Virus record (IMG/VR): IMGVR_UViG_3300022178_000749
Location: 1 to 24,602 of that record
Source of the DNA: a virus
Lineage: Duplodnaviria > Caudoviricetes
Length of the DNA stretch: 24,602 nucleotides
Strand: one strand, 5' to 3'
Shown in pieces: positions 1-24,602 of this stretch. Positions within the stretch are counted from its first letter, which is position 1. Every line of letters starts with the position of its first letter. The position numbers were made by a program, and so were the translations under genes. The notes under the pieces are model-generated. The model ran no database searches, was not told where the DNA came from, and saw only the letters and a program-made list of their open reading frames with translations.

Positions 1-473
1 AATTCGTTACCTTCTTCAATTTCACTATCATCAGTTTCATTGATTTCGTAATACTTTCCTAATGTTTCACCGATTTCATCATAAGATGATTCTAATCGTT
101 GTTGTAGTGTTGCAACTTCTCTTAAAGTTTTTTCAAATATTTTGAATGATTCATTCATTCTCTTTACGTGTCTACTAACAGTAATACCATCAAATGAACC
201 TTCAGTTTCTTTAACCATATTTTTACCAGCAACTTCTACCAACCCTCTGATTGATTCGTATACTTCAGATAACCCTTCGTTTCTATATACAGTTTCACCA
301 AATGATTTGTATGCTTTAACTGCTTCTAAGAATGCATGTTTTTGTTCTGTAGTCATCTCTGAGGATTCTTCATCTTCGTTTTCTTTAACGAATGATTTAG
401 CGTATGGGTCAGAATAAACTTTACCTAACTGTGGGTTGATAGTTTCATTCAGTAAATCTTTTAGTTTTTTCAT
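1..473 (-). CDS. Hypothetical acidic, probably prohead-associated protein (3' end outside window; absent from ORF track)
   Basis: Manual translation from ATG at 473: MKKLKDLLNETINPQLGKVYSDPYAKSFVKENEDEESSEMTTEQKHAFLEAVKAY...YYEINETDDSEIEEGNE, open to position 1. TAAGGA SD-like sequence upstream. Directly follows the prohead protease. Confidence 0.85.
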   Translation of the reverse strand, partial: MKKLKDLLNETINPQLGKVYSDPYAKSFVKENEDEESSEMTTEQKHAFLEAVKAYKSFGETVYRNEGLSEVYESIRGLVEVAGKNMVKETEGSFDGITVSRHVKRMNESFKIFEKTLREVATLQQRLESSYDEIGETLGKYYEINETDDSEIEEGNE

Positions 474-482
474 GTGATATCC

Positions 483-1100
483 TTAAATTGAACAAACACC
501 ATCTATTTCACAGATGATATCTCTTACTAATGTATTAATTTTTTTATATGATGGTGTTTTGCCTTTACCTACTACTGATTCGTTCATTGGTCTCATAAAT
601 GCACCATGTGTTGATGGATTTGAAACAAAGTCCCAGCATATCAAATCAAAGTCATCTTCCACAGTAACAGATTTACCATTACTTGCTTCTTTTACAGAAC
701 CCATACCTCTTGAAGAGATACCAACCGTACACCCTGCTTCTAAAAGCTCTTTGAGGATATTACCTGCTGGTGTTTTAAGTACTTCTACTTTACCCATTAC
801 ATCGTCACCCTTCCAATATACGTCTCTGATGATATGTGAAGTGTTTTTTAGTTCAACTACTGATGATTCTGGATGGTCTAATTCACCAAATGCTCTATTT
901 TCTTTGATTTCTCTACCTTTGTACTTATCCACTTCTCTTTCTAAGATTGAACGTGGATAAACTCTACCATTTTGGTTTTCTGCTTCCGCTCTCTGTAAAA
1001 CACCATTAACAATCAATCTACCATTGTTATCTTCCAATGATTCATTGATTTGAGTCTTACTCATTTTAAACGGAATAATATCTACTAATAGTCTACTCAT
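483..1100 (-). CDS. gp21: Prohead maturation protease, T4 gp21-like (peptidase S77 type)
   Basis: Motifs GVLQRAEAENQNGRVYP, GELDHP (His), GISSRGMGS (Ser) and DFVSNPST are typical of gp21 homologues. Lies downstream of the portal. Confidence 0.95.
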   Translation of the reverse strand: MSRLLVDIIPFKMSKTQINESLEDNNGRLIVNGVLQRAEAENQNGRVYPRSILEREVDKYKGREIKENRAFGELDHPESSVVELKNTSHIIRDVYWKGDDVMGKVEVLKTPAGNILKELLEAGCTVGISSRGMGSVKEASNGKSVTVEDDFDLICWDFVSNPSTHGAFMRPMNESVVGKGKTPSYKKINTLVRDIICEIDGVCSI

Positions 1101-4552: not shown

Positions 4553-4561
4553 TATAAATAT
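4553..4561 (-). promoter_or_regulatory. Conserved ATATTTATA motif (candidate late promoter element)
   Basis: Intergenic, about 30 nt upstream of the portal ATG. Confidence 0.6.
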
Positions 4562-8945: not shown

Positions 8946-9242
8946 TTAGTTTATGTAATGTGTCAATTCAAATTTACCACTATCCATACCATACAATGAT
9001 ATAGATAATCCTTTTCTCTGAGGTTTGCCGTTTTTAAGTAATCCAATTTGGAATGAATGTGTTTTACCAACACCAGGTCTTAAACGATTGTACTTACCAC
9101 CATGTGTGATTTGATTATTCCAATCATCTTCATCAATAGTAAATCCTTTTTTCTCAGCTGCGGTTTTAGCAAAATCAACGGCTTCGCCTGCTGTTTTAAA
9201 GTAATCATTATTACCTTCTAGTAATTCTTTTAATTTTATCAT
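8946..9242 (-). CDS. Hypothetical 98-aa protein with MIKLKELLE leader
   Basis: AGGAG SD-like sequence, start abuts the upstream stop, compact alpha/beta-looking domain after the leader. Confidence 0.85.
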   Translation of the reverse strand: MIKLKELLEGNNDYFKTAGEAVDFAKTAAEKKGFTIDEDDWNNQITHGGKYNRLRPGVGKTHSFQIGLLKNGKPQRKGLSISLYGMDSGKFELTHYIN

Positions 9243-9659
9243 TTATGCTCCTGTTTTGCTATTTGTAGGGGCTTTACCCTTAGTACGGTTACCACCTTTT
9301 TTGGAATCACCAGCTTTCTTTTGTGCTCTTCGTTTTCGACCTACAAAAGTTTTACGTCCAGCTGGCCCAAGTTTAGCAGCTTTCTCTTTTGATAAACAAG
9401 CTGCGTATGCTCCACCCTTCTTACCATCACCACACTTACCTAACTTCTGACCATCACTTCCGTATCTATCCCATCCACCACCTGATGTAGTACCAGTCTT
9501 TCCTTTTCCAAACCATTTGCGAAGGTCTTCGGTCATTAGGTTTTCTGAACATAAGGTTTCATACAAGTCTGATAATGCGTATTCAACACATAGAACTTCA
9601 TCTACTTTTTGAGTGTAATACTCATTAAATCTTTCTCTTAAATAACCTTTAATATCCAT
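9243..9659 (-). CDS. Hypothetical protein with acidic N-terminal part and highly basic Gly/Lys-rich C-terminal module
   Basis: Likely start is the ATG at 9659 (MDIKGYLRE, TAATG overlap with upstream stop) rather than 9689. LMTE|D precedes the module DLRKWFGKG...GGGWDRY...GKCG...ACL. Confidence 0.8.
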   Translation of the reverse strand: MDIKGYLRERFNEYYTQKVDEVLCVEYALSDLYETLCSENLMTEDLRKWFGKGKTGTTSGGGWDRYGSDGQKLGKCGDGKKGGAYAACLSKEKAAKLGPAGRKTFVGRKRRAQKKAGDSKKGGNRTKGKAPTNSKTGA

Positions 9660-9925
9660 TATTCTTCTTTTTTTCCTTTGTTTCCCCAAATCTTATCTAC
9701 AGATGCAATTCCTAATGCTCCTAATGTGATGTATAAGAATCCATCAAATACAAATTCATGTATTGGCATTTCATCACCTTTGATTCCTGTATATAAATCA
9801 ATAAGTAATGTTAATACCATCATTAAGAAAGCTAAAAAACCGATTACGGCCTTTTCATTTATTGAATTATCATCTTTAAACATTTCAGTTAATCCATTTT
9901 CAATCTTTTTGAATAATCTTTTCAT
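9659..9925 (-). CDS. Small two-TM membrane protein, holin-like candidate
   Basis: 88 aa with two hydrophobic segments (AVIGFLAFLMMVLTLLI; FVFDGFLYITLGALGIASV), charged C-terminus, AAAGGAG SD. Holin function not established. Confidence 0.65.
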   Translation of the reverse strand: MKRLFKKIENGLTEMFKDDNSINEKAVIGFLAFLMMVLTLLIDLYTGIKGDEMPIHEFVFDGFLYITLGALGIASVDKIWGNKGKKEE

Positions 9926-10522: not shown

Positions 10523-10531
10523 TATAAATAT
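10523..10531 (-). promoter_or_regulatory. Conserved ATATTTATA motif (candidate late promoter element)
   Basis: Intergenic, 17 nt upstream of the ATG at 10505. Confidence 0.6.
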
Positions 10532-10543
10532 TGTATTATTTAA

Positions 10544-12853
10544 TTAAAAGTACATTAAACCTAATATCTGGTTTAAACTTGCAAAAGCACCTGTAAGTTT
10601 GTAAGTATCTCCTTTGTAAACAAATACTAAACCTTCATTTGGTACAATCTTATCCTTACCACCTATTGCTGCTAATCTTTCTAACTCCATTTTAAGTTTA
10701 GTAATCTTTTCAGGACTACCCGATTTACTAACATCTTTAATCGTTTGGTCTAATCTCTTCTTCATATCTCTAACTGCCTTATCAGGATTAACTGTAAGTA
10801 CTGAACTCATAAATGATAGAACTTCTGCTCCAACACCTAAAAAGATATCTTCGAATTTTCTAGTGTTTTCTTTTGCTAACTTAGTATGGTCTTTTTTATC
10901 GATTTTCTTAGACCACTCTAATGTATCGGAATCAGTAATGTTTTTCTTATCTAATCTAAATGATTTATCATCAAACGCCCAACGTTTTACCAATCCCATT
11001 TTGGTTTTGTTATCTAATGTAGATGGTGAGTTTGAATCAACCCATTGTTCCCACCATGCTTGATGATAATCTGCTACACCATCAGAATCTTTTAATTTAA
11101 ATTCAGATTGAACTTTTTTAAGTTGTGAATTAAACCTAGATTGCATTTTGGATAGTTCTTGATTTTTAGGTAGTTGTGTTACTGGTGGGCCTTGTATTGT
11201 GTACTTATCAGTAACGTTTTTATTTATTTGTTTAATCATCCCGGCTAATATCTTAGCTGCATCGGTATTTGCTCCAATTTGAATACCGTCATCATTAAAC
11301 TCACCTGTGTTGTGGAATACTAATAGAGCTTGTCCGTAAGGAACTACGTTTACTGATGTAGGCCATATAACCTCTAAGTTCATAAATGATGAACCTTGTT
11401 TAAATATCTTATCTCGTTGAGCTGATGATAGCGATTTTATTGCATCATTTAAATCCCTCATTGCGTAATTGTATGCATCGGTTAATCCACCACGTCCACC
11501 AAATTTAGATGCCATTGCACTTATATCTAATGCGTTTTCACCTTTGTTCTTTAAGTGTCCTTTGTTTCGTGCTGCGATTAAACCTTTATCATCTCTCCAA
11601 CTAACTGCTAATGCTTGTCCATCTGTTTTTTCTCTAGCTAATTCTAACTTACCGTTTAATGCACCTCTAATGATTTGTTTTAAATCACCAAATGTTAAAT
11701 TCATTTCAATATCAAATGGATGATTCATATGTCCATATGCCCCACCTTCAGTTATTAAAGATTCTTTTAGTTCTTTAAACTTTTCCGTTTCTACATCTGA
11801 TGTATTATTAGGGTCTGATACTTTCTTTGGTTCGTTTTTAGAACTATCAGCTGCTTTTTCAGCATCTAAGAAATCTACTAAAGTATATCCAACCATTGTT
11901 GCTACTTTTGTAATATGTTTTGCCCATGTCTTATATGCAGGATTACCTTTTAAATCTGTATATCTGATTTGTCCATCCAATCCTGGTTTACCTGATGGGA
12001 AGTATGATACTGGGTATTTATCACCCAATATTCTTTCATCATCTGCATAAATTGAATCTTCATCACTACCTAAGATATAATCAACTACTTGCCAACCCAA
12101 CATTTGAGCAACATCTTCACCAACTTTTTTGTATGTTTTTGAGTTACCATATGTAAATCCAGGCCCATCATCTACTAATGATTTTCCAATTGATGAATTT
12201 TGAGATGCTTCTAAAAGTGGTTCTATATCAAATGAGTTAATGAATCTTTCCATCTTAGATTCAATCTTAAACAACTTATCACTAACCAATTTAAATATTT
12301 TTGGGTCAAACTTTCCGTATGCTTTTTTGAATCCACTCTTTCTTTGTTCTTCTGAACCTTTGGATAACCAATTTCTAACATCAGTTCCACTAATTGGATT
12401 TGATTGAGCAGGTGCTACATACACATATCCCTTATCTTCGTATCCTTTTTCAATTCTATCAGGATGGTATGGTTCAAAATATTTACCTTTTAATCTGTAT
12501 CTATCTTTTTCACCAACTACAGTTATGAATGCTGTAGTTTCTTTGTTGAACTTACCAATGATTTCGGTTGGAGCGTATGGGTTTTTGATTTGAACAATTT
12601 TGTTTGATGAGATGCCAAACATTTTTGTCATAATCATTTTCTTTTCGTTAAACTTAAATGGTGATTTGATGTTATCAGTTTTATTGGATGTACCAATATA
12701 AACATTATCTCTGCCAAATTGTTTTACCAAATGCTCGTAAGTTGCATTGTGACCTTTGTGAAATGGTTGAAATCTACCAGCGTAAACTACTACCTTTTTC
12801 TCTATACCCTCAGTTAAGATTCCCTTAACCCATTCTTTTATAAGTTTTCCCAT
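10544..12853 (-). CDS. Fusion of HxGH cytidylyltransferase-like nucleotidyltransferase, unknown middle module, and KxDG ligase-like nucleotidyltransferase domain
   Basis: N-terminal YAGRFQPFHKGH and ISGTDVR. C-terminal EKTDG, ARNK, NLEV, LLVFH, EGLVF and YKL appear in the order of ligase/capping-enzyme motifs I, Ia, III, IIIa, IV and V. Confidence 0.8.
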   Translation of the reverse strand: MGKLIKEWVKGILTEGIEKKVVVYAGRFQPFHKGHNATYEHLVKQFGRDNVYIGTSNKTDNIKSPFKFNEKKMIMTKMFGISSNKIVQIKNPYAPTEIIGKFNKETTAFITVVGEKDRYRLKGKYFEPYHPDRIEKGYEDKGYVYVAPAQSNPISGTDVRNWLSKGSEEQRKSGFKKAYGKFDPKIFKLVSDKLFKIESKMERFINSFDIEPLLEASQNSSIGKSLVDDGPGFTYGNSKTYKKVGEDVAQMLGWQVVDYILGSDEDSIYADDERILGDKYPVSYFPSGKPGLDGQIRYTDLKGNPAYKTWAKHITKVATMVGYTLVDFLDAEKAADSSKNEPKKVSDPNNTSDVETEKFKELKESLITEGGAYGHMNHPFDIEMNLTFGDLKQIIRGALNGKLELAREKTDGQALAVSWRDDKGLIAARNKGHLKNKGENALDISAMASKFGGRGGLTDAYNYAMRDLNDAIKSLSSAQRDKIFKQGSSFMNLEVIWPTSVNVVPYGQALLVFHNTGEFNDDGIQIGANTDAAKILAGMIKQINKNVTDKYTIQGPPVTQLPKNQELSKMQSRFNSQLKKVQSEFKLKDSDGVADYHQAWWEQWVDSNSPSTLDNKTKMGLVKRWAFDDKSFRLDKKNITDSDTLEWSKKIDKKDHTKLAKENTRKFEDIFLGVGAEVLSFMSSVLTVNPDKAVRDMKKRLDQTIKDVSKSGSPEKITKLKMELERLAAIGGKDKIVPNEGLVFVYKGDTYKLTGAFASLNQILGLMYF

Positions 12854-12868: not shown

Positions 12869-15800
12869 TTAATTATTAGAACCACTCTCTAAAATTTCTA
12901 TGCGATTCTGTAGAGTTTTTATTATTTGTTGTTGGTCTTGAATTGCTTTAATCATTGGTGATATAAATTCACTATACCTCAACGATAGATAGCTCCCATC
13001 ATCATCATATCCACCAAAACTATGAACACTAAACTCAGAGAGTGATTGTGATACTTCTTGAGCGATTAACCCATAATGTGTTGTATCATCATTCATATTG
13101 TATTTTACAGGTTTAAGTGAATCTATAAAACTCAATCCTAAATCTGATATTTCAATATTTGATTTTAATCGTCTATCAGAAAGTGTTGATACTGCGTCTT
13201 TTAAATATGCAGTCTTCCATCTCTTATCAGCAGTTCCTAGTGTATAGATTGATTCTGAAAGTGCACTATTGGATGATGTTGATATCGGTACAAAGTTACC
13301 TTTATGTGCTGTTGATAATTTACCATCCCATGTTAAGTATGTATCTTTAAAGTGTAATGTTTGAGTATCGATTGATATCGCTCTAACGGGTTCAACCATT
13401 CTCATTTCAGTAAGTGCCCATCCAATACCATTAACATCAGTTCCTAATGTACCAGTTGAAGATGAACCACTATAGTTCATACTTAATTTAACTTTAAACT
13501 CTTTGGCGACTGATGTGTCGGTGTTATTAGTTGCGCCTGTTGTTAAAATATCTGTGATTGGAATATCAAATACTTTCCAAGTTCTATGTGTTGCATTCTC
13601 ATCTTTATACTTTTTTGAAAAGTATGTCGTAGAACCAGATATGATGTCAACTTGATATTGTGGGAAGAAACCAGTAAATCCATCTGTATATGGATGTGTA
13701 GTTCCTCTTGCTGCAAACTGTAAATGAGTGTTTCTGTAATTGTTATTTAAAGATTCAGATATATTAATAAATTCAGAAGTTATTGTTTCTAGTACTGCGG
13801 AGCCAGTTCTTGTAAATGACGCACTATTGAAAACTAATTGAGTTCCCACTAAAGTAGGTGATAATGACGCAGACGCGTCTGATACATTAAATACATTAGT
13901 GTCATCAATAAATTTATAATCAGTTGTTAAGTCACTTATCCCATACCAACTCTTAAACTCATCTGGATAACCTACACCATCGAATGTTGAACCCGTTACT
14001 AAATACTGAGTTTGGGATTTTATAAACCCACCAAGCCTCCAATTACCATGTGACCCTGCAAATTTATCTGATGAATCTGAACCTGTAATATCTAATCTTT
14101 TATCTGTCGATGATGTTGTCCATGCTTCAATAAATGGTAATTGATATGTTAGATTTGCAACGGATGGGTGTCTTACACCAGTTTCTACTATTTTACCACC
14201 TAAGAACGTTTCTTGTATAAAACCAGTACTTGCTCTTATATCACCTTTAACTTCTAAGTTATTATTATCTAATGATAAAAGAGATGATGATATAATAAAA
14301 TTATTAGGATTCCCAAATATTCTACCATTTCGATTTTTAAATTCAAATCTATTTGCACTAATATTTAATGCAGAACCAGAAATTGTTCCACCTGAGAAAT
14401 TTACTTGAGAACCTGTGATATCCCCTTTATCATCTAAAAAGAAATTTGATGATGATAACTCACCACTACCACTAATTGTAAATGTTACTTTTTCTACAAA
14501 TGAGCCAGATTGAGTACCAGTTGATACTCTACCTTCAGAAAATTGTTTTGTAGATTCGTGTGTTACGGAGTATGAACGTCTAGTACCAGCAACTTCATCA
14601 TTTGCGGCGGTTGTTGCATATAATATTTGTAATTCAGCTAACTCTGCATTTGTTAAATCTGTTTGAACTCTAGTCGAATCTAATCTTGAAGTAATATTTA
14701 TTGCGGTGGATGCGCCAGAAGATGTTAGTGCATTGATAATCTCAGTCGAGAAAGAAGTTCCGATTGGTTGAAATGAACCACTTTCTGCAATATCCAATGG
14801 CCAAATTGCATCATATAATTTTACTTCCTTTGATATAGTGTATTTTTCTCTAACAAAGTTATTATATAAGGTTAGTGGAACTCCATGACTTGGGGTTGTA
14901 TCGTTGTCATCTGGTACAAATGTACTATGATGAGCACTACCACTTATTCCTATTTCAGCCCAGCTGTTTGGATAGGAGTTAGGATAAGCTTCAGTATTAG
15001 TATCTATACCATTTATTATTGCCTCTACAGTAGGGTGTAGTGTCCAACCTGGTTCTAAATATGCAGCATAGTAATTACTTACTGCGGTTTCACCAGGTAC
15101 ACCATAATTTAAGTTAGCACTAGGGCCAGCGCCACTATTGACGTGGGTTTGCCAATCTACTGGAGTTGAAGTAACCCCCCTAAGTGGTGCATATGATTGT
15201 GTTACGAAACTTGCAGCTTCTTCCCCACCACCTGCTAGTCTTGCATTTTGCATTTCCAGCTGACTGCCATATCCTAATGTACCTTCAGCGCCTGGGTCAA
15301 ATAGAAAAAACGATGATGAAATTGTGTTATATTCGGATGGTGTTATTGATTGACCTGAGTAAACTGTTGCGGTTGCGAGGGGTGGTAATAATTCGCTATC
15401 TGGTTGGTCTGCAACTGCTCCAAATGATGCGGTTAAAAAGAAATTATAGAAAATATTACCGGTTAGTGGTTCTCCACTTCTTTGGTCATCAACTGAAGCA
15501 CTATAAATCCAAATAAATTGTGTGGGTGGGTCGTATGCACCTGCAGACGCTTCCCAATATGCGTTTATAAAATCTTCAGTTGGGTTTGTTGAATTAGTTA
15601 AAGAACTAAAACCTTCCACAAATGAACCAGCGTTCCATACATCTTGTAATATAAATTCAGGAGGCCCGCTTTCAACATGCCAGCCACTTATATAATCTTT
15701 TGAATCTGATGATGATACTACAATTGATGTTGAAGAACCAGTTAAAGATGAAATCATTCTTAAATCTGGTTTTATAAAAAATTCCAAATCAGAATTATTA

Positions 15801-18800
15801 GCGGGAAAAAATTCAACTCGTTCGTCTAAAGAAAGTGCATTGGATGTTGCGAGACTTCCGAAAAATGGGTTTAATGCTGTTAAATCATTTGGAGCACTAT
15901 TAAACTTGGTTGGGTGAAATGCTTCTATTGCAAATGCATATAGTCCTTCTACACCACTTAAAAAGTCATCTGATGAGTATGTAGTAAACTCTCCCTCTGG
16001 CTTTCCTAAAGAGTAAAATCCACCCGAAACTGCTCCGTAAGAGCCAGTTGCAAATTTAGTAAGTATAGATTCACTAACAAATGTCACCTTACCACTATTA
16101 AAGGTAAACGACCCACTATACTCTATTTCATAATCTTCTTTTTCAGAAAATGTTGAAGTACCTAGTTGAAGGGTAGTTGCGTTAGTTCTTTCAGAAACTG
16201 CAATTCTACTAGAAGTAACGTTTGTAATTGTTATAGTGGCTCTATTGTCTACTTCTGTTGGAATACTTGGGGTACTACCATCACCAAATTCTGATGCGAT
16301 GAATGTAGCAGTTGTTCCTACAATTGGAGTAAATTCTTCTACTAATCTAAGTGCATCGAAATTAGATGATGATATGATGAAAGATGCTATTCTACCCGCT
16401 TCTGCGTAAATAGTACCATTTAAGATTGCATCACCACCTGGTTGTAAATGAAAGTTAGATGAACTAATTTCCAAATTACCATTTGAACCACTAACAAATT
16501 GAGATGCACCACCTAAGAAGAATCTATCTACTGTGATGTTTGCGTTAGAACCACTTACTAATAATTCTTTTGTTGTGTTATCCCAAACAAATTGAGCTTC
16601 AGAAGAACCACTACCTAAATAGAAGTTACCATCTGAATCTAAGTATGATGTAAAATCATCTAATGAACCATTAGAGCCTGAAATACCATCGTGGAATCCA
16701 AATACATTTGAAGTCATTAAAAGACCAGGAGATGCAATCGGGCCAACTCCGGTTAGGTTTTCATTAGCCCAAGTGAAATCTTGATTATCATCTCCTTGTG
16801 CTCCAGTTACACCCTGTCTTGCTTCTGATATTGACATTGTTTTTGCCAAACTAACACTTTCGGATGTTGCGGTTATTACAATAGAACCTGTAAATGGTGT
16901 TGTTGAATTTGTTAAGGTTACAGTATCACCAACCAATGTTGTTGTCATATGTGCTGGTGCAGTTCTACTGATTGTGTAATCATTAGTAACATCCGATGTT
17001 CCTTGAAAAACTATAATATCAGTACTTGCTCCAGTAAACGATATAACTTCATCTGATGAACTTATAGGTAAAGTATGTGAATCGTTTGTTAAGAATGCCG
17101 TAATTGCTGATACACCATCTGCTCCAGCTGCACCATTCTCACCATTAGTACCACCTTCTACTTTGAATATTTTTACAGAATCTTCCAATCCATCTTTTGT
17201 AGCGGTAATCGTAACAGGTAAATTAGATTTGGTAGAATTTAAACCGCCTGTATTTAATGCTCCACTAAATGATATACTACCACTTACAATACCAGTACCA
17301 CTACTAACATCGTTATTATCAAAATCAAAATTAGTAACATTTCCACCTGCGGTTGATATAGTAATATCACTACTACTAATTGTACCACTAAGGTTTTGTT
17401 GTTGGAAACTAAAGATAATTGATGTTGGGTCTGCCGAAGTATCTGCAGTATCATCAAATGCAAATACTTGTGAATCTAAACTACCAATCAATAATTTAGC
17501 AGATGTTCCATCAGCACCAGTTATACCTTGTTTAGATTTAACTAAACTCATTGTTTTTGATAAAGAAACACTAGCAGAGGTTGCAGTTATAATAACCGAA
17601 CCGCTATCATTTGCAAGTGCGCCGATATTCACCGTCTTTGGTGGTGCAAGTGATGAACTTACCCCAGCACCATTAGATGCTGATATTGTATAATTTGATG
17701 TTACATTTGTAACTCCCTCAAATACTTCCATATCAGTAGAACCACCAACAAAAGATACAATAGTACCATCGGTTGCTGCAGCGAATGTATGTGCTTCATT
17801 TGTAAGGAATGTAGTAACACCATCTACACCATCTGCTCCAGCTGCACCACTATCACCTAAAACGGCAATAGCCATAAACGTACTATCCCCATTACTTAAA
17901 TTGGCCCAACCATTTTTATCAATATGTGTGATATCTACCGTTCTCCAAGAACCATTATCTGTTTGGTCAGTTACATAAGCTGATTCGTAATATGATTGAT
18001 TTGCTTCTTGTCTAAATGTAATTATAGATTTGTTAGGAGTATTTGTTGATGATGTTAATTGGTTTAATAATGGTGCTACTCCCAACCCATCTAAATCTGT
18101 TTCACTTATATAAACTTCAGTAGCTGCGGCAGGGTCAGCGGCGTTAAATCTAAATTTACCCGAACCAGGGTCTGCTTCTGTTGTAGATGTAGAATACTCT
18201 ATACTAAAACCAGTAGTTGAAACACCATCAGCACCCGCTGCACCATCAGCGCCACCCTCTACTTTAAATATTGTAGTTGTATCTAATAGTGAATCTTTAG
18301 ATACTTCAATGGTTATTGGTAAATCGGATTTTGTCAATGATTCACCTGAGAATGATAAACTACCACTCAATTGACCAGAACCATTCGTAACTACCCCACC
18401 TAATGTTGGGGTTGTGATTGTACTACCACCATCTTTTGTGATAGTGATATCAGATGTCGTTATAGTACCAGTTAAGTTTTGTTGACTTATTGTAAATACA
18501 ATTGTATCGGGTGTTGCTGTTGTATCTGCTGAGTTATCGAATGCATACACTTGAGAATCAACACCAATAGATAATGCTCTTGCGGTTGATGATTCAGTTA
18601 CTGCGTTGATTGCTTCTTCAACACCAGTCCCATCCGCTAATTGGATTTGACCTCTAACTACTAATGATGTTCCATTCCAAGTAAGTCTATCACCCAATGA
18701 GAAGTTGGATGCTGAATCAATGTAGAATCCAGTGTTTAAGTTAGCCCATGTTCCATTACCATTGTAGAGTTTACCGGCTTCCATATTAATCCCACCGATA

Positions 18801-21694
18801 GAACCTGTATTTGCTTTAATACCACCTTGAAGATATACGTTGTTTGTTGCCAATCCATAACCTGGTGCTGAACTACCAAATACATAATCACTTCCCGCTA
18901 ACCCACTTAAATCACCTAATCTTGCAGCGAGTGCTACATCATATAAACCTGAACCAGTCCGTTCAACGATATCCATAAATGGAGTAGCTTGGTCAGATGG
19001 GTTTGCGTTTAATTTAATATAACCCGTTCCAATTTTACCTGTTGATACTACAACTTGCCCATCTTCGTATGATTGTGATATACTTCCAATATCCCCCACA
19101 TAATCACCCGATGAACCACTACCATACCCTCTAGTTACATATAACCTGCCATAATTTTCATCTTCATTACTTTGGTCACCCTCAAGAGATGATGAGTTAA
19201 CTAATATATATTCTGTCTGAAATCCAGTGTTATCAACTTTTTTAGCTAATAGTATTTCACCATTTACAAATCCTTTTATGTTCTTAACAGACATTGTTGC
19301 TGCAGTTGCTAAGATTGAACCTGTAAGTGTTGATGAGTTAGCAATCCACAATTGACCACCTACTGCATTAACTGATTCTTTTTCGAATGTAGTGGTTCTC
19401 ATCGTACCTCTAATTCTAACATTTTCAAATTCAGCAGTTCCGTTTCCTTCAGATGATATTTTCCATCCTTTTAATCCACTTGCAAAATCTCTTGTTTGTA
19501 AGATACCCTCTGGTCTCATTAAAAGGTTTCCACCTTCAATAGATGCAGTAGTTATATCCCAACCACCAATAGATGCTGATTTGAATGATGCAAATCCATC
19601 TGATGTAATCGATGAACTTGCATTTGTTATATCAGCAGGTGAACCTGCGATTGTGGCTGGTGTAAATATCTGGTCTACTGATAAATCACCCCTAACAACT
19701 AAATTCCCATCATCATATTGAACATATTGTGATGATGCTTTATCACCAAATAAGAAACCATCTGATGCGGTAATCTGTCCACTTGATTTGAGGATTAGAT
19801 TATCGTTTATAGAATTAATTTGAGTACTTGCTACTTCAAATCCAGCTATTGTTCCACCACTAAATAATACATTTGAACCTGTAATTTGACCGCTATCCTT
19901 TAATATTAGATTGTCGTTTGCCGAATTGATTTGGGATGTACTTATTTCAAACCCACCAATTGACGCTGATACGAATTTAGCGAATCCATCTGATGTAATC
20001 GATGCAGATGCGTTCAGTATAGTTGATTGTGAACCACCAATTGTTGCTGGTGTAAATATTTGATTTGCAGATAAGTCTGCGTTTATTACTGTACCTGCTC
20101 CAATTACTAATGAATTGTTTTTTGGGTCTAAGTGAAATAAAGATGAACTGATTTCAATGTTTGAGTCAGAACCACTAATAAATTGAGTATTATTTGTACC
20201 AATAAAGAATTTATCAGTTTTAACATCTAACAATCCACCATCATCTGTTGTAAATATAAAGTGTCTATCATCATTATCACCAATCATTTGCATACCAACA
20301 CCATGTAGTACGTCATCTCCGATTAGCATATTACCAGAACCACTATAGATTATAAACCCACCTGGCCCTTTACCTAATGATGCAGATGTTTGTCCATCAA
20401 ATCCCACAGAACGTATGAACCCAGAGGATACCCCTCCCATTTCAATTCCAGTACCAAGTGCATTGGAAATAAACATCGAACCACTTATAAGGTTTTTATC
20501 ACCCCCTATATATGAGTTACCACCTTGAAATACAAATGGGGCAGTAATCGTCTCAGTTCTTGATATTTCACCGACTGAGTTTAGATATTGTATTTTTAAT
20601 AATTTCGGGTCTTTTAAGTTTTCAGATGGAACTGGTACTTTTACACTAAATGACGCACTATATGGTACTGTAACTTCATTTAATAATTCAAACTCACCTG
20701 GTAATCCATCAGACTTAATTAAAACCTTTACCTTATCAACTACCCCTGCAATTGGGTCTACGTTCGATAATGTTATATTAGCAAAAGACCGTTCATTTTC
20801 AGTTACAACATTAGAACCACTTCTAACATATTGAATACTATAATTTGCAGATGCAATTTTTCCGTATGTGTGTGTTAACTCATCTCTATTATCAAATGAT
20901 GTTGTATATTCATTTAATAATACTGCAGTTGTGTTGTTTATAAGTTTAGATATTGATGAACTGAAAAACGTATCACTAAGTGGGTTATCATATTTAGAAA
21001 CTGGTGTTGCAGGTTCGATGTAGTTGGATAAAACAATTGATGCATCAATCATTTCATTATTGAAGGTAGTCCCATCGGTTAATTGGACTATGGGTGTTTC
21101 ACCTTTATATATGTAACTAGCATCTGTTCCGGTTTGCGATACTGATAACAATTCATTACCACTTTGAGGTTGGTTTCTATATGATTCAATACTTTCTGAA
21201 ATCTGTATTGTTGGTGTCTGCTTAGCTTTAAAAAGTACAGATGATGTATTTTTTCGGATTCTATCAACGTTTACAGTAGTCTGCCATCTAACATTGGGGT
21301 TTCCTTTAAATCTCTGAGGAACGGGTTCCCCATTATTACCTACATTGGATGTACCAACTAATGTTATTGTAGCTTCACCATTTGCAGTATTGTCGTCACC
21401 CTTATCGTGGTAAATCCAAATAGATATTGCTCTACTTTTATCTTCTTCTAAATAATCAGGAATTTCAAAGTATATTGGATTTCCACTTGAATCTCTAACG
21501 TCTACAAGAATCTGAGAACCTTCTACTAAATTAGTAGGATGCGCTGATATTCTTAATAGGTTCTTACCTTTCTGTAAAACTTCAGGTACATCAGACACTC
21601 TAAAGTACTTTGTAGATGTTGGTGATGTGTCATCAACATAAACTGATAATTTTGATAACTCTTCTCTTGCTACTTTTTTAAATGGTAATGACAT
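12869..21694 (-). CDS. Very large tail fibre/receptor-binding-like protein with C-terminal intramolecular chaperone (peptidase S74-type)
   Basis: 2941 aa, Ser/Gly/Thr-rich, with internal duplications and Gly-x-y linkers (GADGAAGADG). C-terminal SDRRLK...LKPVKY...YGLIAQEV...MIKAIQ plus coiled coil from about 13180. GGAG SD. Confidence 0.88.
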   Translation of the reverse strand: MSLPFKKVAREELSKLSVYVDDTSPTSTKYFRVSDVPEVLQKGKNLLRISAHPTNLVEGSQILVDVRDSSGNPIYFEIPDYLEEDKSRAISIWIYHDKGDDNTANGEATITLVGTSNVGNNGEPVPQRFKGNPNVRWQTTVNVDRIRKNTSSVLFKAKQTPTIQISESIESYRNQPQSGNELLSVSQTGTDASYIYKGETPIVQLTDGTTFNNEMIDASIVLSNYIEPATPVSKYDNPLSDTFFSSSISKLINNTTAVLLNEYTTSFDNRDELTHTYGKIASANYSIQYVRSGSNVVTENERSFANITLSNVDPIAGVVDKVKVLIKSDGLPGEFELLNEVTVPYSASFSVKVPVPSENLKDPKLLKIQYLNSVGEISRTETITAPFVFQGGNSYIGGDKNLISGSMFISNALGTGIEMGGVSSGFIRSVGFDGQTSASLGKGPGGFIIYSGSGNMLIGDDVLHGVGMQMIGDNDDRHFIFTTDDGGLLDVKTDKFFIGTNNTQFISGSDSNIEISSSLFHLDPKNNSLVIGAGTVINADLSANQIFTPATIGGSQSTILNASASITSDGFAKFVSASIGGFEISTSQINSANDNLILKDSGQITGSNVLFSGGTIAGFEVASTQINSINDNLILKSSGQITASDGFLFGDKASSQYVQYDDGNLVVRGDLSVDQIFTPATIAGSPADITNASSSITSDGFASFKSASIGGWDITTASIEGGNLLMRPEGILQTRDFASGLKGWKISSEGNGTAEFENVRIRGTMRTTTFEKESVNAVGGQLWIANSSTLTGSILATAATMSVKNIKGFVNGEILLAKKVDNTGFQTEYILVNSSSLEGDQSNEDENYGRLYVTRGYGSGSSGDYVGDIGSISQSYEDGQVVVSTGKIGTGYIKLNANPSDQATPFMDIVERTGSGLYDVALAARLGDLSGLAGSDYVFGSSAPGYGLATNNVYLQGGIKANTGSIGGINMEAGKLYNGNGTWANLNTGFYIDSASNFSLGDRLTWNGTSLVVRGQIQLADGTGVEEAINAVTESSTARALSIGVDSQVYAFDNSADTTATPDTIVFTISQQNLTGTITTSDITITKDGGSTITTPTLGGVVTNGSGQLSGSLSFSGESLTKSDLPITIEVSKDSLLDTTTIFKVEGGADGAAGADGVSTTGFSIEYSTSTTEADPGSGKFRFNAADPAAATEVYISETDLDGLGVAPLLNQLTSSTNTPNKSIITFRQEANQSYYESAYVTDQTDNGSWRTVDITHIDKNGWANLSNGDSTFMAIAVLGDSGAAGADGVDGVTTFLTNEAHTFAAATDGTIVSFVGGSTDMEVFEGVTNVTSNYTISASNGAGVSSSLAPPKTVNIGALANDSGSVIITATSASVSLSKTMSLVKSKQGITGADGTSAKLLIGSLDSQVFAFDDTADTSADPTSIIFSFQQQNLSGTISSSDITISTAGGNVTNFDFDNNDVSSGTGIVSGSISFSGALNTGGLNSTKSNLPVTITATKDGLEDSVKIFKVEGGTNGENGAAGADGVSAITAFLTNDSHTLPISSSDEVISFTGASTDIIVFQGTSDVTNDYTISRTAPAHMTTTLVGDTVTLTNSTTPFTGSIVITATSESVSLAKTMSISEARQGVTGAQGDDNQDFTWANENLTGVGPIASPGLLMTSNVFGFHDGISGSNGSLDDFTSYLDSDGNFYLGSGSSEAQFVWDNTTKELLVSGSNANITVDRFFLGGASQFVSGSNGNLEISSSNFHLQPGGDAILNGTIYAEAGRIASFIISSSNFDALRLVEEFTPIVGTTATFIASEFGDGSTPSIPTEVDNRATITITNVTSSRIAVSERTNATTLQLGTSTFSEKEDYEIEYSGSFTFNSGKVTFVSESILTKFATGSYGAVSGGFYSLGKPEGEFTTYSSDDFLSGVEGLYAFAIEAFHPTKFNSAPNDLTALNPFFGSLATSNALSLDERVEFFPANNSDLEFFIKPDLRMISSLTGSSTSIVVSSSDSKDYISGWHVESGPPEFILQDVWNAGSFVEGFSSLTNSTNPTEDFINAYWEASAGAYDPPTQFIWIYSASVDDQRSGEPLTGNIFYNFFLTASFGAVADQPDSELLPPLATATVYSGQSITPSEYNTISSSFFLFDPGAEGTLGYGSQLEMQNARLAGGGEEAASFVTQSYAPLRGVTSTPVDWQTHVNSGAGPSANLNYGVPGETAVSNYYAAYLEPGWTLHPTVEAIINGIDTNTEAYPNSYPNSWAEIGISGSAHHSTFVPDDNDTTPSHGVPLTLYNNFVREKYTISKEVKLYDAIWPLDIAESGSFQPIGTSFSTEIINALTSSGASTAINITSRLDSTRVQTDLTNAELAELQILYATTAANDEVAGTRRSYSVTHESTKQFSEGRVSTGTQSGSFVEKVTFTISGSGELSSSNFFLDDKGDITGSQVNFSGGTISGSALNISANRFEFKNRNGRIFGNPNNFIISSSLLSLDNNNLEVKGDIRASTGFIQETFLGGKIVETGVRHPSVANLTYQLPFIEAWTTSSTDKRLDITGSDSSDKFAGSHGNWRLGGFIKSQTQYLVTGSTFDGVGYPDEFKSWYGISDLTTDYKFIDDTNVFNVSDASASLSPTLVGTQLVFNSASFTRTGSAVLETITSEFINISESLNNNYRNTHLQFAARGTTHPYTDGFTGFFPQYQVDIISGSTTYFSKKYKDENATHRTWKVFDIPITDILTTGATNNTDTSVAKEFKVKLSMNYSGSSSTGTLGTDVNGIGWALTEMRMVEPVRAISIDTQTLHFKDTYLTWDGKLSTAHKGNFVPISTSSNSALSESIYTLGTADKRWKTAYLKDAVSTLSDRRLKSNIEISDLGLSFIDSLKPVKYNMNDDTTHYGLIAQEVSQSLSEFSVHSFGGYDDDGSYLSLRYSEFISPMIKAIQDQQQIIKTLQNRIEILESGSNN
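16830..18560 (-). repeat. Duplicated ~90-110 aa domains (A-C-B-A'-B') with collagen-like linkers
   Basis: DSQV(Y/F)AFD...QQNL...FKVEGG occurs twice and T(T/A)FLTN(E/D)xH...SLxKTMS twice. Identical 25-mer tacaccatctgctccagctgcacca at 17111-17135 and 17825-17849. Domain boundaries approximate. Confidence 0.85.
19563..20062 (-). repeat. Nested internal repeats in the tail-fibre-like gene
   Basis: QIFTPATIxGS...NASxSITSDGFAxFxSASIGG occurs twice (identical 22-mer at 19593-19614 and 19983-20004), flanking two copies of QINSxNDNLILKxSGQIT. Confidence 0.85.
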
Positions 21695-21716: not shown

Positions 21717-24602
21717 TTATAAATATCTAATAGATGAAAATCCATCAACTTTGGATATATCTATAATCTGGTCAACCATATCTCTAGTCTTATCTATATG
21801 TGATATCGTTACTATAAAATCAAATTGATTCTTTAGGTAATCAAATAATAAATATAAAGAATTAAAGTTATCACTATCTAACGAACCAAATCCTTCATCA
21901 ATTGCTATAAAGTTTGGTCGTGGTAAGTTTGATACATTTGTTAATGCAGTTCTTATTGCTACTGATGATATAAACTTCTCCATACCACTCGTTAATTCTA
22001 ATGGCCAGAACTCATCATCACCATATGCAATGTATGAGTTTATATTCTTACCATCGGTATTTAATAATATTTGGAAATCTACAAGTGGTTGTAATATGTT
22101 GTTTATCTCCACTTCTAACTTAGGTAGTACTTCTGAAATTAATTCGTATGGAATGCCATCCCTCTTTACAGATTTTAAATAATACTCATACCCTTCATAT
22201 TTACGTTCCATTTCACCCAATCTATTGATAGAGTCATTGACTGTTTTAATTGTATTTTCTGCTATCTTAACATCACCACTAACATCGATAATGGTTTCAG
22301 TTGTATCAAATACTAATTGTTCAATTTCTTTTAGATTGTGTTTGTGCTTATCAATTTCTATTTGTATCTTTGCATTATGCTCTACTGATTCTTTTTGTTC
22401 AATTGATTTTTGAATATCAGATTCTATATTACTAATTTTAGTTTGTAAATTAGTAAGTTCTAAGTTACATGATTTAGTTTGTAGTTCTACCTTTTCTATA
22501 TCAGATGTATAATCATCTATTTTTATTTTTAAATCTTTAACAGTTACTAATACATCCCTAACATCATACTTAATCATTTCAGATTTCATATCAATAATTT
22601 CATTACTCAATCTCTTTGATGTTAATGTTAGCTTTTTGATATCATCTGATAATGTTTTTGATTTTTTAGCGAATGGTGTATTTTGATTCTGTACACAATG
22701 CTCACACTCATCATCGAATGATAACGAACCAATCCCATCTAAATGCTCTTGCTTATGTTCAATATCAGTATTTAAACTATCTAAAGATGATGTTATCTCT
22801 TCTATGCGAGTAACATATGTTTGGTACTTTAAATTACTTTCTTGTAAATTCCTTAAATCATACTTATTAAATTTGGATTGATAGTCATTTAACTTAAATT
22901 GTAAATCAGCTAAATTATCGGCATAATCTTTACATTCGGATGATTTAATATCTAAATTTTCTTCTAATTTTAATTTTAATTTAATAAGATTATCAGTATT
23001 AATAACCGAAGAATCTACTGAGATTAACTCACCTAATAAACTCTCAATTTTAATACTAGCTTTTGTTTTTTGTTCAGAATACGTTTCTGACAATGTTTGT
23101 GTTTCAGATAATAGTTTTTTATTTTCTACTAAACTATCCTCTGCTTCAGATAATTTTTCAGTAAAGTTTTGATTCTTATAATCTTTTAATAAAGCACTTA
23201 ATTCTCTAATCTCATCATTTGCTATTTGATACAATTCTTCAAATACGTTCATATCTAAGAATTGTGCAAGAAGTTCTTTCTTTTCTTTTTGAGATTTCTC
23301 AATGAACCCACCACTATTAGATTGATTAGACATTGCAGTAAGTGTGAAGTCTTCATATGACCCAACATATTGTCTAATTATAGAATTTGTTTCTCTTCTC
23401 TCTTCGCCGTTTAGTGAGTGTTCAACACCATCAACAATACAATAAAAGTTTATATCAACTTTAACAGTACCTCGTTTGGGCGACTTCTTACCAACTCTTT
23501 CAATAAAGTAATCAACACCATTAATCTCAAAATTAAACTTACAATCAAATTTTGATTTAGAGTAGTTAAGAACGTCTAATGCTTTGGAAGTGCGAGAACA
23601 TTTGTCATATATACAAAATGAAAGTGCATCCCATAATGAAGACTTACCACTTGCATTGGATGCAAATATTCCATATGCACCTTTCATCTGAGTGAAGTCT
23701 ATTACATTGTCTGCACCATACGAAAACATATTAGAGAACTCAAATGTCTTTGGTTTCCATATAGTATTTTTCATACCGACTGATGTTCCTAATTTTTGAT
23801 TTATATCGTTATTGATATTTCTAACTACATCTAAATGGTCGTCACTTAAAACAAATCTGTCCGATAAGTAATCTTCTATAAGTTTATTTTGAAACCCAAC
23901 GTCCCTTACGTTCTGTAATATAATATTAGAACCACCACTATAATCTTTTGTGTCAGTAATTACTTTTTGGATTGATACCTCTTGCACCTTTCTACCTACT
24001 CTAATTTTAGATAGTACTTTTTTAAGTTGGGATTGGGTCGTATCCTTCACTCTAACCCTCATACGAGGTTTGTTTGGTATGTTTGGATTGCCAACTACCT
24101 TTCCATCTTCTACATCAACTGTAATGTATCCGTAATCATTGTGAATGGGAACAAACTCAGACTCTTTTGTCTCAACATCCCATACCAATATACCATGCTC
24201 TGGATATTTTGCTTCAGAGTGATTCTGCATAATAGTTGAACCACAATACTTAATTGTACCTTCTGAATTTAGCGATTGATTTGGAACGTGAATATCTCCT
24301 AATAAAACTAAATCATACCCATTAAACGAGTCTACGTTTACATTTTTGTTTTCAATTTCAAACCCATATTCAGTTTTCACCTTATCTACTGGTGCATGAT
24401 ATAGTGCAATTTTATAATCACCACTAACTTCTTCCGATGGGATGATTTCTTTTGATTCACCAAAGACTGATGAATGTGAGAATGATATACCACCCATTGA
24501 CCACACACCATCGTTTTTTAGATAGTGTAAGTTTGTATGTTTTAATGCATTTACAATCGGCGAAAGTGCATCTAATCGAGATGGGTTATTTAAATTTGCA
24601 TC
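21717..24602 (-). CDS. Single-chain Mre11/SbcD (gp47-like) nuclease fused to Rad50/SbcC (gp46-like) ATPase; 5' end outside window
   Basis: Frame is open to the window end (DANLNNPSRLDALSPIV...). Phosphoesterase motifs YHAPV, LGDIH and YCGS, then Walker A ASNASGKSS, Q-loop, Zn hook CEHC within coiled coils, signature TSGMEK, Walker B/D-loop IDEGFGSLD and H-loop ISH. Confidence 0.93.
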   Translation of the reverse strand, partial: DANLNNPSRLDALSPIVNALKHTNLHYLKNDGVWSMGGISFSHSSVFGESKEIIPSEEVSGDYKIALYHAPVDKVKTEYGFEIENKNVNVDSFNGYDLVLLGDIHVPNQSLNSEGTIKYCGSTIMQNHSEAKYPEHGILVWDVETKESEFVPIHNDYGYITVDVEDGKVVGNPNIPNKPRMRVRVKDTTQSQLKKVLSKIRVGRKVQEVSIQKVITDTKDYSGGSNIILQNVRDVGFQNKLIEDYLSDRFVLSDDHLDVVRNINNDINQKLGTSVGMKNTIWKPKTFEFSNMFSYGADNVIDFTQMKGAYGIFASNASGKSSLWDALSFCIYDKCSRTSKALDVLNYSKSKFDCKFNFEINGVDYFIERVGKKSPKRGTVKVDINFYCIVDGVEHSLNGEERRETNSIIRQYVGSYEDFTLTAMSNQSNSGGFIEKSQKEKKELLAQFLDMNVFEELYQIANDEIRELSALLKDYKNQNFTEKLSEAEDSLVENKKLLSETQTLSETYSEQKTKASIKIESLLGELISVDSSVINTDNLIKLKLKLEENLDIKSSECKDYADNLADLQFKLNDYQSKFNKYDLRNLQESNLKYQTYVTRIEEITSSLDSLNTDIEHKQEHLDGIGSLSFDDECEHCVQNQNTPFAKKSKTLSDDIKKLTLTSKRLSNEIIDMKSEMIKYDVRDVLVTVKDLKIKIDDYTSDIEKVELQTKSCNLELTNLQTKISNIESDIQKSIEQKESVEHNAKIQIEIDKHKHNLKEIEQLVFDTTETIIDVSGDVKIAENTIKTVNDSINRLGEMERKYEGYEYYLKSVKRDGIPYELISEVLPKLEVEINNILQPLVDFQILLNTDGKNINSYIAYGDDEFWPLELTSGMEKFISSVAIRTALTNVSNLPRPNFIAIDEGFGSLDSDNFNSLYLLFDYLKNQFDFIVTISHIDKTRDMVDQIIDISKVDGFSSIRYL
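21718..21726 (-). promoter_or_regulatory. Conserved ATATTTATA motif overlapping the last codons of the upstream gene
   Basis: Formed by AGA TAT TTA TAA (R-Y-L-stop), 23 nt upstream of the tail-fibre-like ATG. Confidence 0.55.

Follow-up and report, generated by a model that had tools for sequence, protein, structure and literature searches.

A gene for a 769-amino-acid (aa) protein in an uncultured, distantly T4-like phage may encode a three-part precursor that is cut by a protease of the T4 gp21 type and carried in the capsid, its products including an RNA-ligase-like enzyme and an enzyme of nicotinamide adenine dinucleotide (NAD) synthesis or related adenylyl transfer. The gene lies on the minus strand of IMG/VR virus record IMGVR_UViG_3300022178_000749 (Duplodnaviria; Caudoviricetes). 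The stretch analysed, referred to here as the window, is a 24.6-kb fragment (24,602 nucleotides [nt]) of a virus record. The reading frame is uninterrupted, and the gene is a late gene within a block of structural genes. A probability of roughly one half is assigned to this reading as a whole. A broader interpretation is somewhat less probable, namely that an unmodelled RNA-ligase-like clade forms the constant last module of an “enzyme kit” that is made as one precursor, cut by the prohead protease, carried in the capsid and injected. RNA repair and NAD+ supply would then precede phage gene expression and could pre-empt host defences that cut transfer RNA (tRNA) or deplete NAD. Clustering at 50% identity divides this clade into no fewer than 1,694 groups, and the kit would be built by distant T4-like aquatic phages.

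On sequence grounds, protease processing and packaging of the protein are somewhat favoured. The joints between the pieces look like cut sites of the phage's head protease, and the capsid therefore probably contains these pieces, which would pass into the host together with the DNA. In T4, L/I-X-E precedes the bond cut by gp21, and capsid targeting needs no more than the first 10 residues of the internal protein IPIII (both according to the available part of PMC9026906). The T4 Alt gene product begins MELITE. In the protein described here, a 15-residue leader is conserved among full-length relatives, and [LIVM]xE occurs in the leader of 215 of 225 proteins. The leader of the 769-aa protein has a hydrophobic moment of 0.55, which only 2.2% of 5,000 shuffles reach; the value for shuffled versions is 0.27. 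A helix is predicted, with low confidence, at residues 2–13.

Five [LI]xE tripeptides (leucine or isoleucine, any residue, glutamate) occur in the 769-aa protein, at residues 5, 13, 213, 362 and 367, where its composition predicts 5.9. They are confined to the leader and two internal joints, and none is found in the three domain bodies. The joints are also marked by other features. Among 51 close relatives, smoothed conservation falls below 0.55, termini aside, only at residues 216–221 and 339–362, and insertions sit after residues 215, 221 and 224. In addition, residues 1–4 of a structural model of the ligase-like domain have a predicted local distance difference test (pLDDT) score <50. Alignment of 11 relatives of differing length placed the entry of extra modules exactly at joints, each module having its own [LI]xE↓[AG][SG], where the arrow marks the candidate cut. 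The [LI]xE sites coincide with independently defined module borders. Similarly, [LIVM]xE stands directly before the ligase-like domain in 255 of the 287 relatives with upstream sequence, and GG follows in 285 of them. Stand-alone forms of the domain likewise carry, in ten of 15 cases, a leader of 10–30 aa that ends in the same motif.

[LI]xE is avoided family-wide inside the ligase-like domain. Expected counts were obtained from composition-preserving shuffles, and the control tripeptides included [LI]xD, [LI]xQ, [LI]xxE and [VM]xE. Among 289 distinct proteins in which the ligase-like domain is complete, 285 [LI]xE were observed and 870 expected (ratio 0.33; controls 0.71–2.06, with only [VM]xE, at 0.71, below 0.98), and among 138 representatives of 50% clusters the ratio was 0.52 (bootstrap 0.44–0.59; controls 1.07–1.78), ratios that overstate the evidence because related sequences are not independent. 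The ratio was 1.26 for 314 other ORFs (open reading frames) of the same loci and 1.50, an enrichment, for the upstream modules with joints. Portal, terminase, fibre and SbcC proteins have [LI]xE at expectation. Three core- or scaffold-like ORFs around the protease contain 27 sites against 10.5 expected, distributed as 13 against 4.3 in ORF 1716-2564, six against 3.1 in 1231-1719 and eight against 3.1 in 3-473 (all minus strand). These ORFs flank the protease, and scaffold or core proteins that are broken down by cleavage would be expected to show such richness. In a relative, Microcystis phage Mel-JY01, the major capsid protein has LISE↓A near residue 60, which recalls the cut that removes the 65-residue propeptide of T4 gp23 (PMC9026906, in the part available).

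The C-terminal 400 aa contain the motifs of a covalent nucleotidyltransferase. These are motif I, EKTDG, at residues 408–412 (K409); ARNK from residue 428; motif III, NLEV, from 492 (E494); motif IIIa, LLVFH, from 510 (F513); motif IV, EGLVF, from 740 (E740); and motif V, YKL, from 751 (K752). In an alignment of 43 members of the C-terminal domain that are 38–70% identical to the query, there is no variation at K409, D411, G412, A428, R429, D467, F484, G487, E494, Y506, E740, G741 or F744, and almost none at F513, H514 and K752. A conserved GGxxGHxxHPFD signature precedes motif I. In one relative (L012, 3591-7083 [+]), the gene is interrupted exactly between the K and T of EKTDG. Its upstream half ends in AREK and runs into an intein-N-like stretch that starts with Cys, while the downstream half opens with an intein-C-like stretch that ends in His-Asn and is followed by TDGQ. 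By sequence, the interruption is a split intein, and a free-standing 244-aa ORF between the two halves may be a homing endonuclease. Inteins are usually located at active sites, and the split intein at this lysine therefore supports the position of K409 as an active site.

An AlphaFold2 model of the domain, built on the 43-member alignment, has a pLDDT of 94.5 and a predicted template modelling score of 0.90. In the model, the motif residues fall on successive strands in canonical order (model residues 36–41, 121–128, 142–151, 373–378 and 381–385). When the model was compared with 48,161 chains by VIA-align, the first nine rows were all ligases, with 175–204 residues aligned and Z scores of 7.1–8.9, although a best Z of 7–8 is typical even for models that have no true match. 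NgrRnl (5cot) came first, with a Z of 8.9 (root-mean-square deviation [rmsd] 4.2, 189 residues aligned), and was followed by REL1 (1xdn, 8.6) and T4 Rnl2 (8.2 for 2hvq, and 8.1). Next were Trl1 (6n0t and 9r3w, 7.9 each), T4 Rnl1 (9do4, 7.8; rmsd 3.8, 175 residues aligned), Candida Trl1 (7.3) and Pmar-Lig (7.1). DNA ligases and capping enzymes followed at Z 5–7, and the remaining rows were short helical matches. Nearly all top rows of a Foldseek search of the PDB were also RNA ligases (best 8rbj, E 5.6e-3). In the BFVD, the family's own members came first, annotated only as “cytidyltransferase-like domain-containing”; distant uncharacterised proteins came next, including a 591-aa protein of cyanophage S-PM2 (E 1.8e-6), and named viral RNA ligases appeared from rank 25.

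As the Z values are only middling, a claim about the fold needs a combined basis. Such a basis is found in the uniformly ligase identity of the best matches, in alignments that span the entire core (model residues 3–397), in the order of the motifs and in their invariance. Together these make it very probable that the modelled C-terminal domain has a ligase-type nucleotidyltransferase fold, and likely that it is an active covalent nucleotidyltransferase. That RNA is its substrate is slightly favoured.

The resemblance to ATP-dependent RNA ligases (T4 Rnl1, fungal Trl1, T4 Rnl2, Trypanosoma brucei REL1 and Naegleria NgrRnl) extends from the fold (Z 7.8–8.9) to motifs I (KxDG), III (E), IIIa (F), IV (EG) and V (K), which occur in identical order. 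With Rnl1 the local pattern is also similar, in that EKTDG, ARNKG and NLEVxxP correspond to K99xDG, KSKG and NFE159YVAP. The spacing of motifs IV and V is 12 aa, compared with 13–15 in Rnl1. In contrast, motifs III and IV are 246 aa apart, compared with 68 in Rnl1; the difference is due to an all-helical insertion of about 170 aa that precedes motif IV. Rnl1 and Rnl2 have an extra, clade-specific domain appended after motif V. Here, the accessory domain is instead inserted between motifs IIIa and IV, and the chain ends 17 residues past motif V. Two further features that differ from known RNA ligases are the GGxxGHxxHPFD signature and the near-constant last place of the domain in a variable, multi-module protein.

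The N-terminal domain belongs, by sequence, to the HIGH superfamily of nucleotidyltransferases. It carries FHKGH at residues 31–35 and ISGTDVR at residues 154–160, and H32, G34, H35, S155, G156, T157 and R160 are invariant among the 51 close relatives. Residues 23–161 pass Pfam PF01467 (CTP_transf_like) with 31.9 bits against a cut-off of 21, and the domain matches “cytidyltransferase” PHROGs (phrog_395, E 1.2e-14). The closest solved proteins by sequence are nicotinamide mononucleotide (NMN) adenylyltransferases (NMNATs; 2qjt, E 1.4e-5, and 1f9a, E 1.8e-4), which have GRFQPFHKGH in common with it, in alignments that span only the first 60–70 residues of the domain. When the HxGH part of a whole-protein model (means of 10-residue blocks, pLDDT 67–89) was searched with Foldseek, NadM 2r5w (E 8.4e-5), 2qjt, NadD enzymes and the Methanocaldococcus jannaschii NMNAT came first. 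GRFQPFHKGH, ISxTxxR, PF01467 and the top sequence and fold matches are thus all held in common with the NadM or archaeal-type NMNATs (2qjt, 2r5w and 1f9a). Unlike those enzymes, the 769-aa protein lies far below equivalog cut-offs and has no Nudix partner. Across the family, GRFQP occurs within the first 120 residues of 225 of 301 distinct proteins. Most retain HxGH, and at least 15 have G[KPR]HH.

Much of this architecture had been anticipated in a first-pass annotation made from the sequence without database searches, and every motif that it named was found where it had been placed in ORF 10544-12853 (-). Its HxGH nucleotidyltransferase is borne out as an NMNAT-like domain by PF01467 and by the sequence and Foldseek relatives. 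The ligase-like KxDG domain that it proposed is upheld in silico by fold and motifs (invariant residues, the model at pLDDT 94.5 and RNA ligases as top structural matches). The large insertion noted before EGLVF amounts to 225 aa between LLVFH and EGLVF and is helical in the model. Finally, the suggestion that xxE sites delimit the domains agrees with the conservation dips, the insertion and deletion points of relatives and the low-confidence start of the ligase-domain model.

Between the two enzymatic domains lies a middle module with a conserved core (VDDGPG, then YPVSYFPSG, then VGYxLVDFLDA) and a variable linker of about 40 aa that is rich in P, K, E and S. Neither Pfam nor NCBIfam gave a family for this module, and the Atlas gave nothing at ≥0.9. 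Its pLDDT in the whole-protein model is <50.

The family is large and modular. The C-terminal domain matched 1,694 clusters (50% identity) at E ≤ 1e-3 and 506 at E ≤ 1e-30, and its members are abundant in viromes, both marine and freshwater, with >3,500 proteins matched and 507 viral contigs. The ligase-like domain is at the extreme C-terminus in most of the 150 matches listed, the exceptions noted being P0171, P0173, P0258 and P0265. Of 80 viral loci, 47 have a complete gene, which encodes 395–2104 aa with a conserved leader, and the number of modules ranges across relatives from one to about a dozen. For example, 19 of 20 longer relatives that were scanned start with the HxGH domain, seven have a PolyA_pol head domain of the CCA-adding type, and seven have an HD domain. 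These fused CCA-adding and HD modules point to tRNA ends. In seven relatives with mapped domains, [LI]xE falls mostly between Pfam domains. The homologue in Mel-JY01 (L001 11243-13162 [+], 639 aa) is without the middle module and retains SGTxxR, a joint (IIAE↓GG) and EKLDG. Its counterparts of the leader and joint sites read IFSE↓DD and IIAE↓GG.

Two relatives, P0002 and P0025, have a module of ~250 aa just after LITEGGAY that contains a zinc finger of the ROS_MUCR type (precomputed PF05443) and an HNH-like pattern. GGAY is duplicated at the end of the module, where the joint reads LLTC↓GG and has no Glu. An intein was considered for this insert and rejected, given its LLTC↓GG end and the lack of His-Asn before the junction.

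Taken as a sequence of events, the proposed mechanism would run as follows. The precursor would be made together with the structural genes, and its amphipathic leader of 15 residues would act like a T4 capsid-targeting sequence and dock it on the prohead core. The gp21-type protease would then cut after E15, E215 and E369, and possibly after E364. Three products would be kept in the head and ejected with the DNA: the NMNAT-like enzyme (~200 aa), the middle module (~150 aa) and the ligase-like enzyme (400 aa). Early in infection, the HxGH product would use NMN and ATP to make NAD+, or would catalyse an adenylyl transfer of a related kind. The ligase-like product, adenylylated on K409, would seal RNA breaks, most probably those that anticodon nucleases of the host make in tRNA. 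In longer relatives, a CCA-adding enzyme and an HD phosphohydrolase would be added to the same chain.

A number of observations weigh against this reading. The evidence for cleavage, packaging and activity is computational, and a search of the literature found no proteomic data for the lineage and no paper naming Mel-JY01. The P1 Glu of the last joint is absent in 32 of 287 relatives, and at least one internal [LI]xE is retained in the ligase-like domain of 142 of 289 proteins. In the HxGH body, the [LI]xE ratio of 0.67 was rejected as a specific avoidance, as the [LI]xD control stood at 0.73. The T4 late promoter TATAAATA has no match on the coding strand of the window. For the ligase-like domain, Pfam and NCBIfam have nothing that matches the C-terminal 400 aa (Pfam being empty to E 5), and PF09414 (RNA_ligase) and PF09511 (RNA_lig_T4_1) have no match in the window at E up to 10. 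PF09414 is touched by only one of the 43 family members, at E 0.0057, and no row of the Foldseek search of the PDB was at E ≤ 1e-3. A profile search of the PDB also found no ligase, with LigA appearing only at E 3.4, at motif I. Comparisons by hhalign with T4 RnlA, T4 RnlB and a 30-sequence Rnl1 profile were non-significant (E 0.16, 0.019, 0.065 and 0.039), with probabilities of ≤1.3% in the Rnl1 comparisons, and a larger local profile of 139 sequences left the Rnl1 comparison non-significant. These non-significant alignments pair EKTDG with K99xDG of Rnl1 and EKIHG of Rnl2, ARNKG with KSKG, and NLEVxxP with NFE159YVAP.

The HxGH domain raises similar cautions. It scores under every NCBIfam NMNAT cut-off (at best 34.1 bits against 397, and 33.5 against 127), and since these scores are so far under the cut-offs, it is referred to here as an NMNAT-like HIGH-superfamily nucleotidyltransferase rather than an NMNAT. 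In the Mel-JY01 homologue, HxGH itself is replaced, the sequence reading GRFQPMGIHH. The whole-protein model is poor (mean pLDDT 54), and linker disorder and the fold of the middle module are weakly based for that reason.

Perhaps the most serious competing explanation is that the protein is never cut and acts in the cytoplasm as a multidomain enzyme, one chain in the manner of T4 RnlA and PseT, with the [LI]xE↓G/A joints serving as a linker or recombination motif for module shuffling. In T4 itself, the enzymes of RNA repair are not known as head proteins, and the T4 annotation calls RnlA a tRNA repair ligase. Also in favour of this explanation are the computational nature of the case for processing, the relatives that lack Glu at the last joint and the LLTC↓GG end of the extra module in P0002 and P0025. 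However, a linker motif leaves unexplained why [LI]xE is specifically avoided in the ligase-like domain while [LI]xD, [LI]xQ and [LI]xxE are not, why stand-alone forms have a short leader ending in the same motif, and why the motif matches the known specificity of a protease family encoded nearby. An uncut enzyme is accordingly judged rather unlikely.

The remaining alternatives concern what the C-terminal domain does. It could be a covalent nucleotidyltransferase for a substrate other than RNA, such as a DNA nick ligase, a capping-like enzyme or an AMPylase of proteins or nucleic acids, with the 170-aa helical insert binding that substrate. Fold alone reveals no function, the insert is without counterpart in the listed ligases, and DNA ligases (6rce Pmar-Lig, 6imk of African swine fever virus, 6dt1 of T4 and 2q2t of Chlorella virus) and capping enzymes (1p16 and 4pz6) reach Z 5.0–7.1. 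Yet RNA ligases take each of the first eight places among the structural neighbours, the modules co-fused in relatives are a CCA-adding enzyme and HD, the model has no room for an OB domain in the 17 residues past motif V, and hhalign found no match with T4 DNA ligase. On balance, a different substrate is improbable. Less probable still, and judged very unlikely, is a role in attaching or assembling tail fibres, as for T4 gp63 (RnlA), with enzyme chemistry secondary. In the T4 record, RnlA carries the annotation “RNA ligase 1 and tail fiber attachment catalyst”, and T4 Rnl1 is one of the domain's structural neighbours (Z 7.8). The gene also starts 15 nt past a 2941-aa ORF with a Peptidase_S74 domain, and the order is the same in L012. 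Against a fibre role, the catalytic motifs are invariant across 38–70% identity, the intein targets the lysine, and the fusion partners are RNA-end enzymes rather than fibre proteins. Moreover, the gene directly upstream in Mel-JY01 encodes a small hypothetical protein, and no fibre gene is annotated there.

For a protease-cut, capsid-carried precursor of RNA-repair and NAD enzymes, the nearest known parallels are T4 Alt and the IP proteins, the concept of polyvalent proteins, and a virion “cytidylyltransferase” of cyanophage S-CREM2. T4 IPI, IPII, IPIII and Alt likewise have a short N-terminal leader ending in L/I-x-E, a gp21-family protease in the same genome and a location in the structural block, and Alt is the precedent for an enzyme as T4 head cargo (PMC9026906, available part). 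Unlike these proteins, the present one would combine several enzymes in one precursor, with internal joints and a variable set of modules. Polyvalent proteins of phages and conjugative elements are also large, variable multi-enzyme proteins that are encoded with late or packaging genes and have been proposed to be co-delivered with DNA and cut (Iyer et al. 2017, PMC5512222, in the portion available). They differ in that the only Pfam match here is PF01467, no MuF or MPTase peptidase domain was found, and the prohead protease would carry out the processing, at L/I-x-E. The available portion of PMC5512222 reports no RNA ligase in polyvalent proteins.

A “cytidylyltransferase” was detected in S-CREM2 virions by mass spectrometry (PMC10665884, in the section available). 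This protein, ORF154, is likened to the present one by name of annotation only, and it is much shorter, its printed gene coordinates spanning 861 nt. The 591-aa “cytidyltransferase-like domain-containing” protein of S-PM2 (A0A0M6VVW4), which is the BFVD match at E 1.8e-6 (TMq 0.42), is just 12% identical. In a literature search that included the available parts of PMC9503650, PMC7824862 and PMC5512222, their supplements lying outside the search, neither the fusion nor the ligase-like clade was described.

If the reading is true, capsid-delivered enzymes would extend past T4 Alt to a swappable toolkit for RNA repair and NAD supply. The ligase-like domain would represent a new structural clade of RNA ligases with an accessory helical domain inside the nucleotidyltransferase core, and leader plus L/I-x-E joints would be a natural rule, readable from sequence, for loading foreign enzymes into T4-like heads. 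As a large and abundant family without an annotated function, it affects how aquatic phage genomes are read. The availability of a cultured relative, Mel-JY01, makes the reading testable.

With respect to genomic context, every large ORF of the window is on the minus strand. The order is an SbcC-like ATPase, a 2941-aa ORF, the 769-aa gene, seven smaller ORFs, a T4-type large terminase, a T4-type portal, two small ORFs, the prohead protease of the T4 gp21 type and a scaffold-like ORF. The portal is 55% identical to that of Mel-JY01, 51% to that of Flavobacterium phage immuto and 33% to that of Rhodothermus phage RM378, identities that mark the phage as a distant T4-like myovirus. Coordinates of the features discussed are collected in Table 1.

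Table 1. Features of the 769-aa protein gene and the putative processing protease, with positions in the window; the arrow marks the candidate cut.
Feature	Position (nt)	Residues	Strand	Basis or remarks
Whole gene	10544..12853		-	769 aa + stop; start 15 nt past stop of 2941-aa fibre-like ORF
Leader MGKLIKEWVKGILTE, candidate capsid-targeting propeptide	12809..12853	1-15	-	Amphipathic, ends I-T-E↓G; ILTE↓G at residues 12-16, nt 12806-12820
HxGH (HIGH-superfamily) nucleotidyltransferase domain, NMNAT-like, with GRFQPFHKGH and ISGTDVR	12209..12808	16-215	-	PF01467, phrog_395, 2qjt, 2r5w
Joint 1, P-L-L-E↓A, candidate prohead-protease site	12206..12220	212-216	-	Motif, insertions in relatives, conservation dip
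Middle module, fold unassigned	11747..12208	216-369	-	Conserved core, then variable linker
Joint 2, L-I-T-E↓G-G, candidate prohead-protease site before ligase-like domain	11744..11758	366-370	-	Family-wide motif
RNA-ligase-like covalent nucleotidyltransferase domain (putative), carries GGAYGHMNHPFD	10547..11746	370-769	-	Invariant motifs, model at pLDDT 94.5, structure matches
All-helical insertion, motif IIIa to motif IV	10649..11161	~565-735	-	Helices at model residues 197-367
Prohead core serine protease (T4 gp21 type, S77), presumed processing enzyme	483..1100		-	PF03420, E 1.7e-34; phrog_207, E 9.8e-53

The first-pass annotation had referred to the 769-aa protein as a second polyprotein, and this did not hold for its neighbour. 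Pfam matches the 2941-aa ORF (12869-21694 [-]) significantly only near the C-terminus, with a Peptidase_S74 domain of the endosialidase/tail-fibre chaperone kind (residues 2839–2887, E 7.6e-11), PHROG comparison gave it no family, and its 19 [LI]xE are at chance level (18.8 expected). Because of its Peptidase_S74 end and chance-level [LI]xE, it looks like a tail fibre and not like a first polyprotein; by sequence, it is probably a giant tail fibre.

Several minor matches and candidates are recorded here. In the profile search of the PDB, the Lys-rich helical insert of the ligase-like domain (~10800-11100 [-], residues ~590–680) weakly matched the C-terminal helices of eukaryotic ribosomal protein eS6 at E 8.7e-4, a match that is probably compositional and was set aside. 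DUF6267 (PF19782), an Atlas lead carried by 24% of the members of the nearest clusters, was unconfirmed, being found in none of the 43 relatives, in no window match and in no control match; a literature search on DUF6267 found no paper. The four matches to TATAAATA in the window were rejected as a sign of late timing, since all are on the non-coding strand and 4.9 are expected by chance. They lie on the plus strand at 2606-2613, 4553-4560, 10523-10530 and 21718-21725, where the coding strand reads TATTTATA. Each is 18–42 nt upstream of a minus-strand gene start, an odd placement.

Leaders similar to that of the 769-aa protein occur in other ORFs of the head block, all on the minus strand. These are MIKLKELLE↓G (8946-9242), MKRLFKKIENGLTE↓M (9659-9925), MKSFIKEIE↓D (1231-1719) and MKKLKDLLNE↓T (3-473). 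Small head-block ORFs with [LI]xE leaders may be further head cargo or core proteins. Lastly, in the head-gene block of the Mel-JY01 record, a ribosomal protein S21 gene is annotated between the prohead protease and capsid genes (L001 22183-22410).

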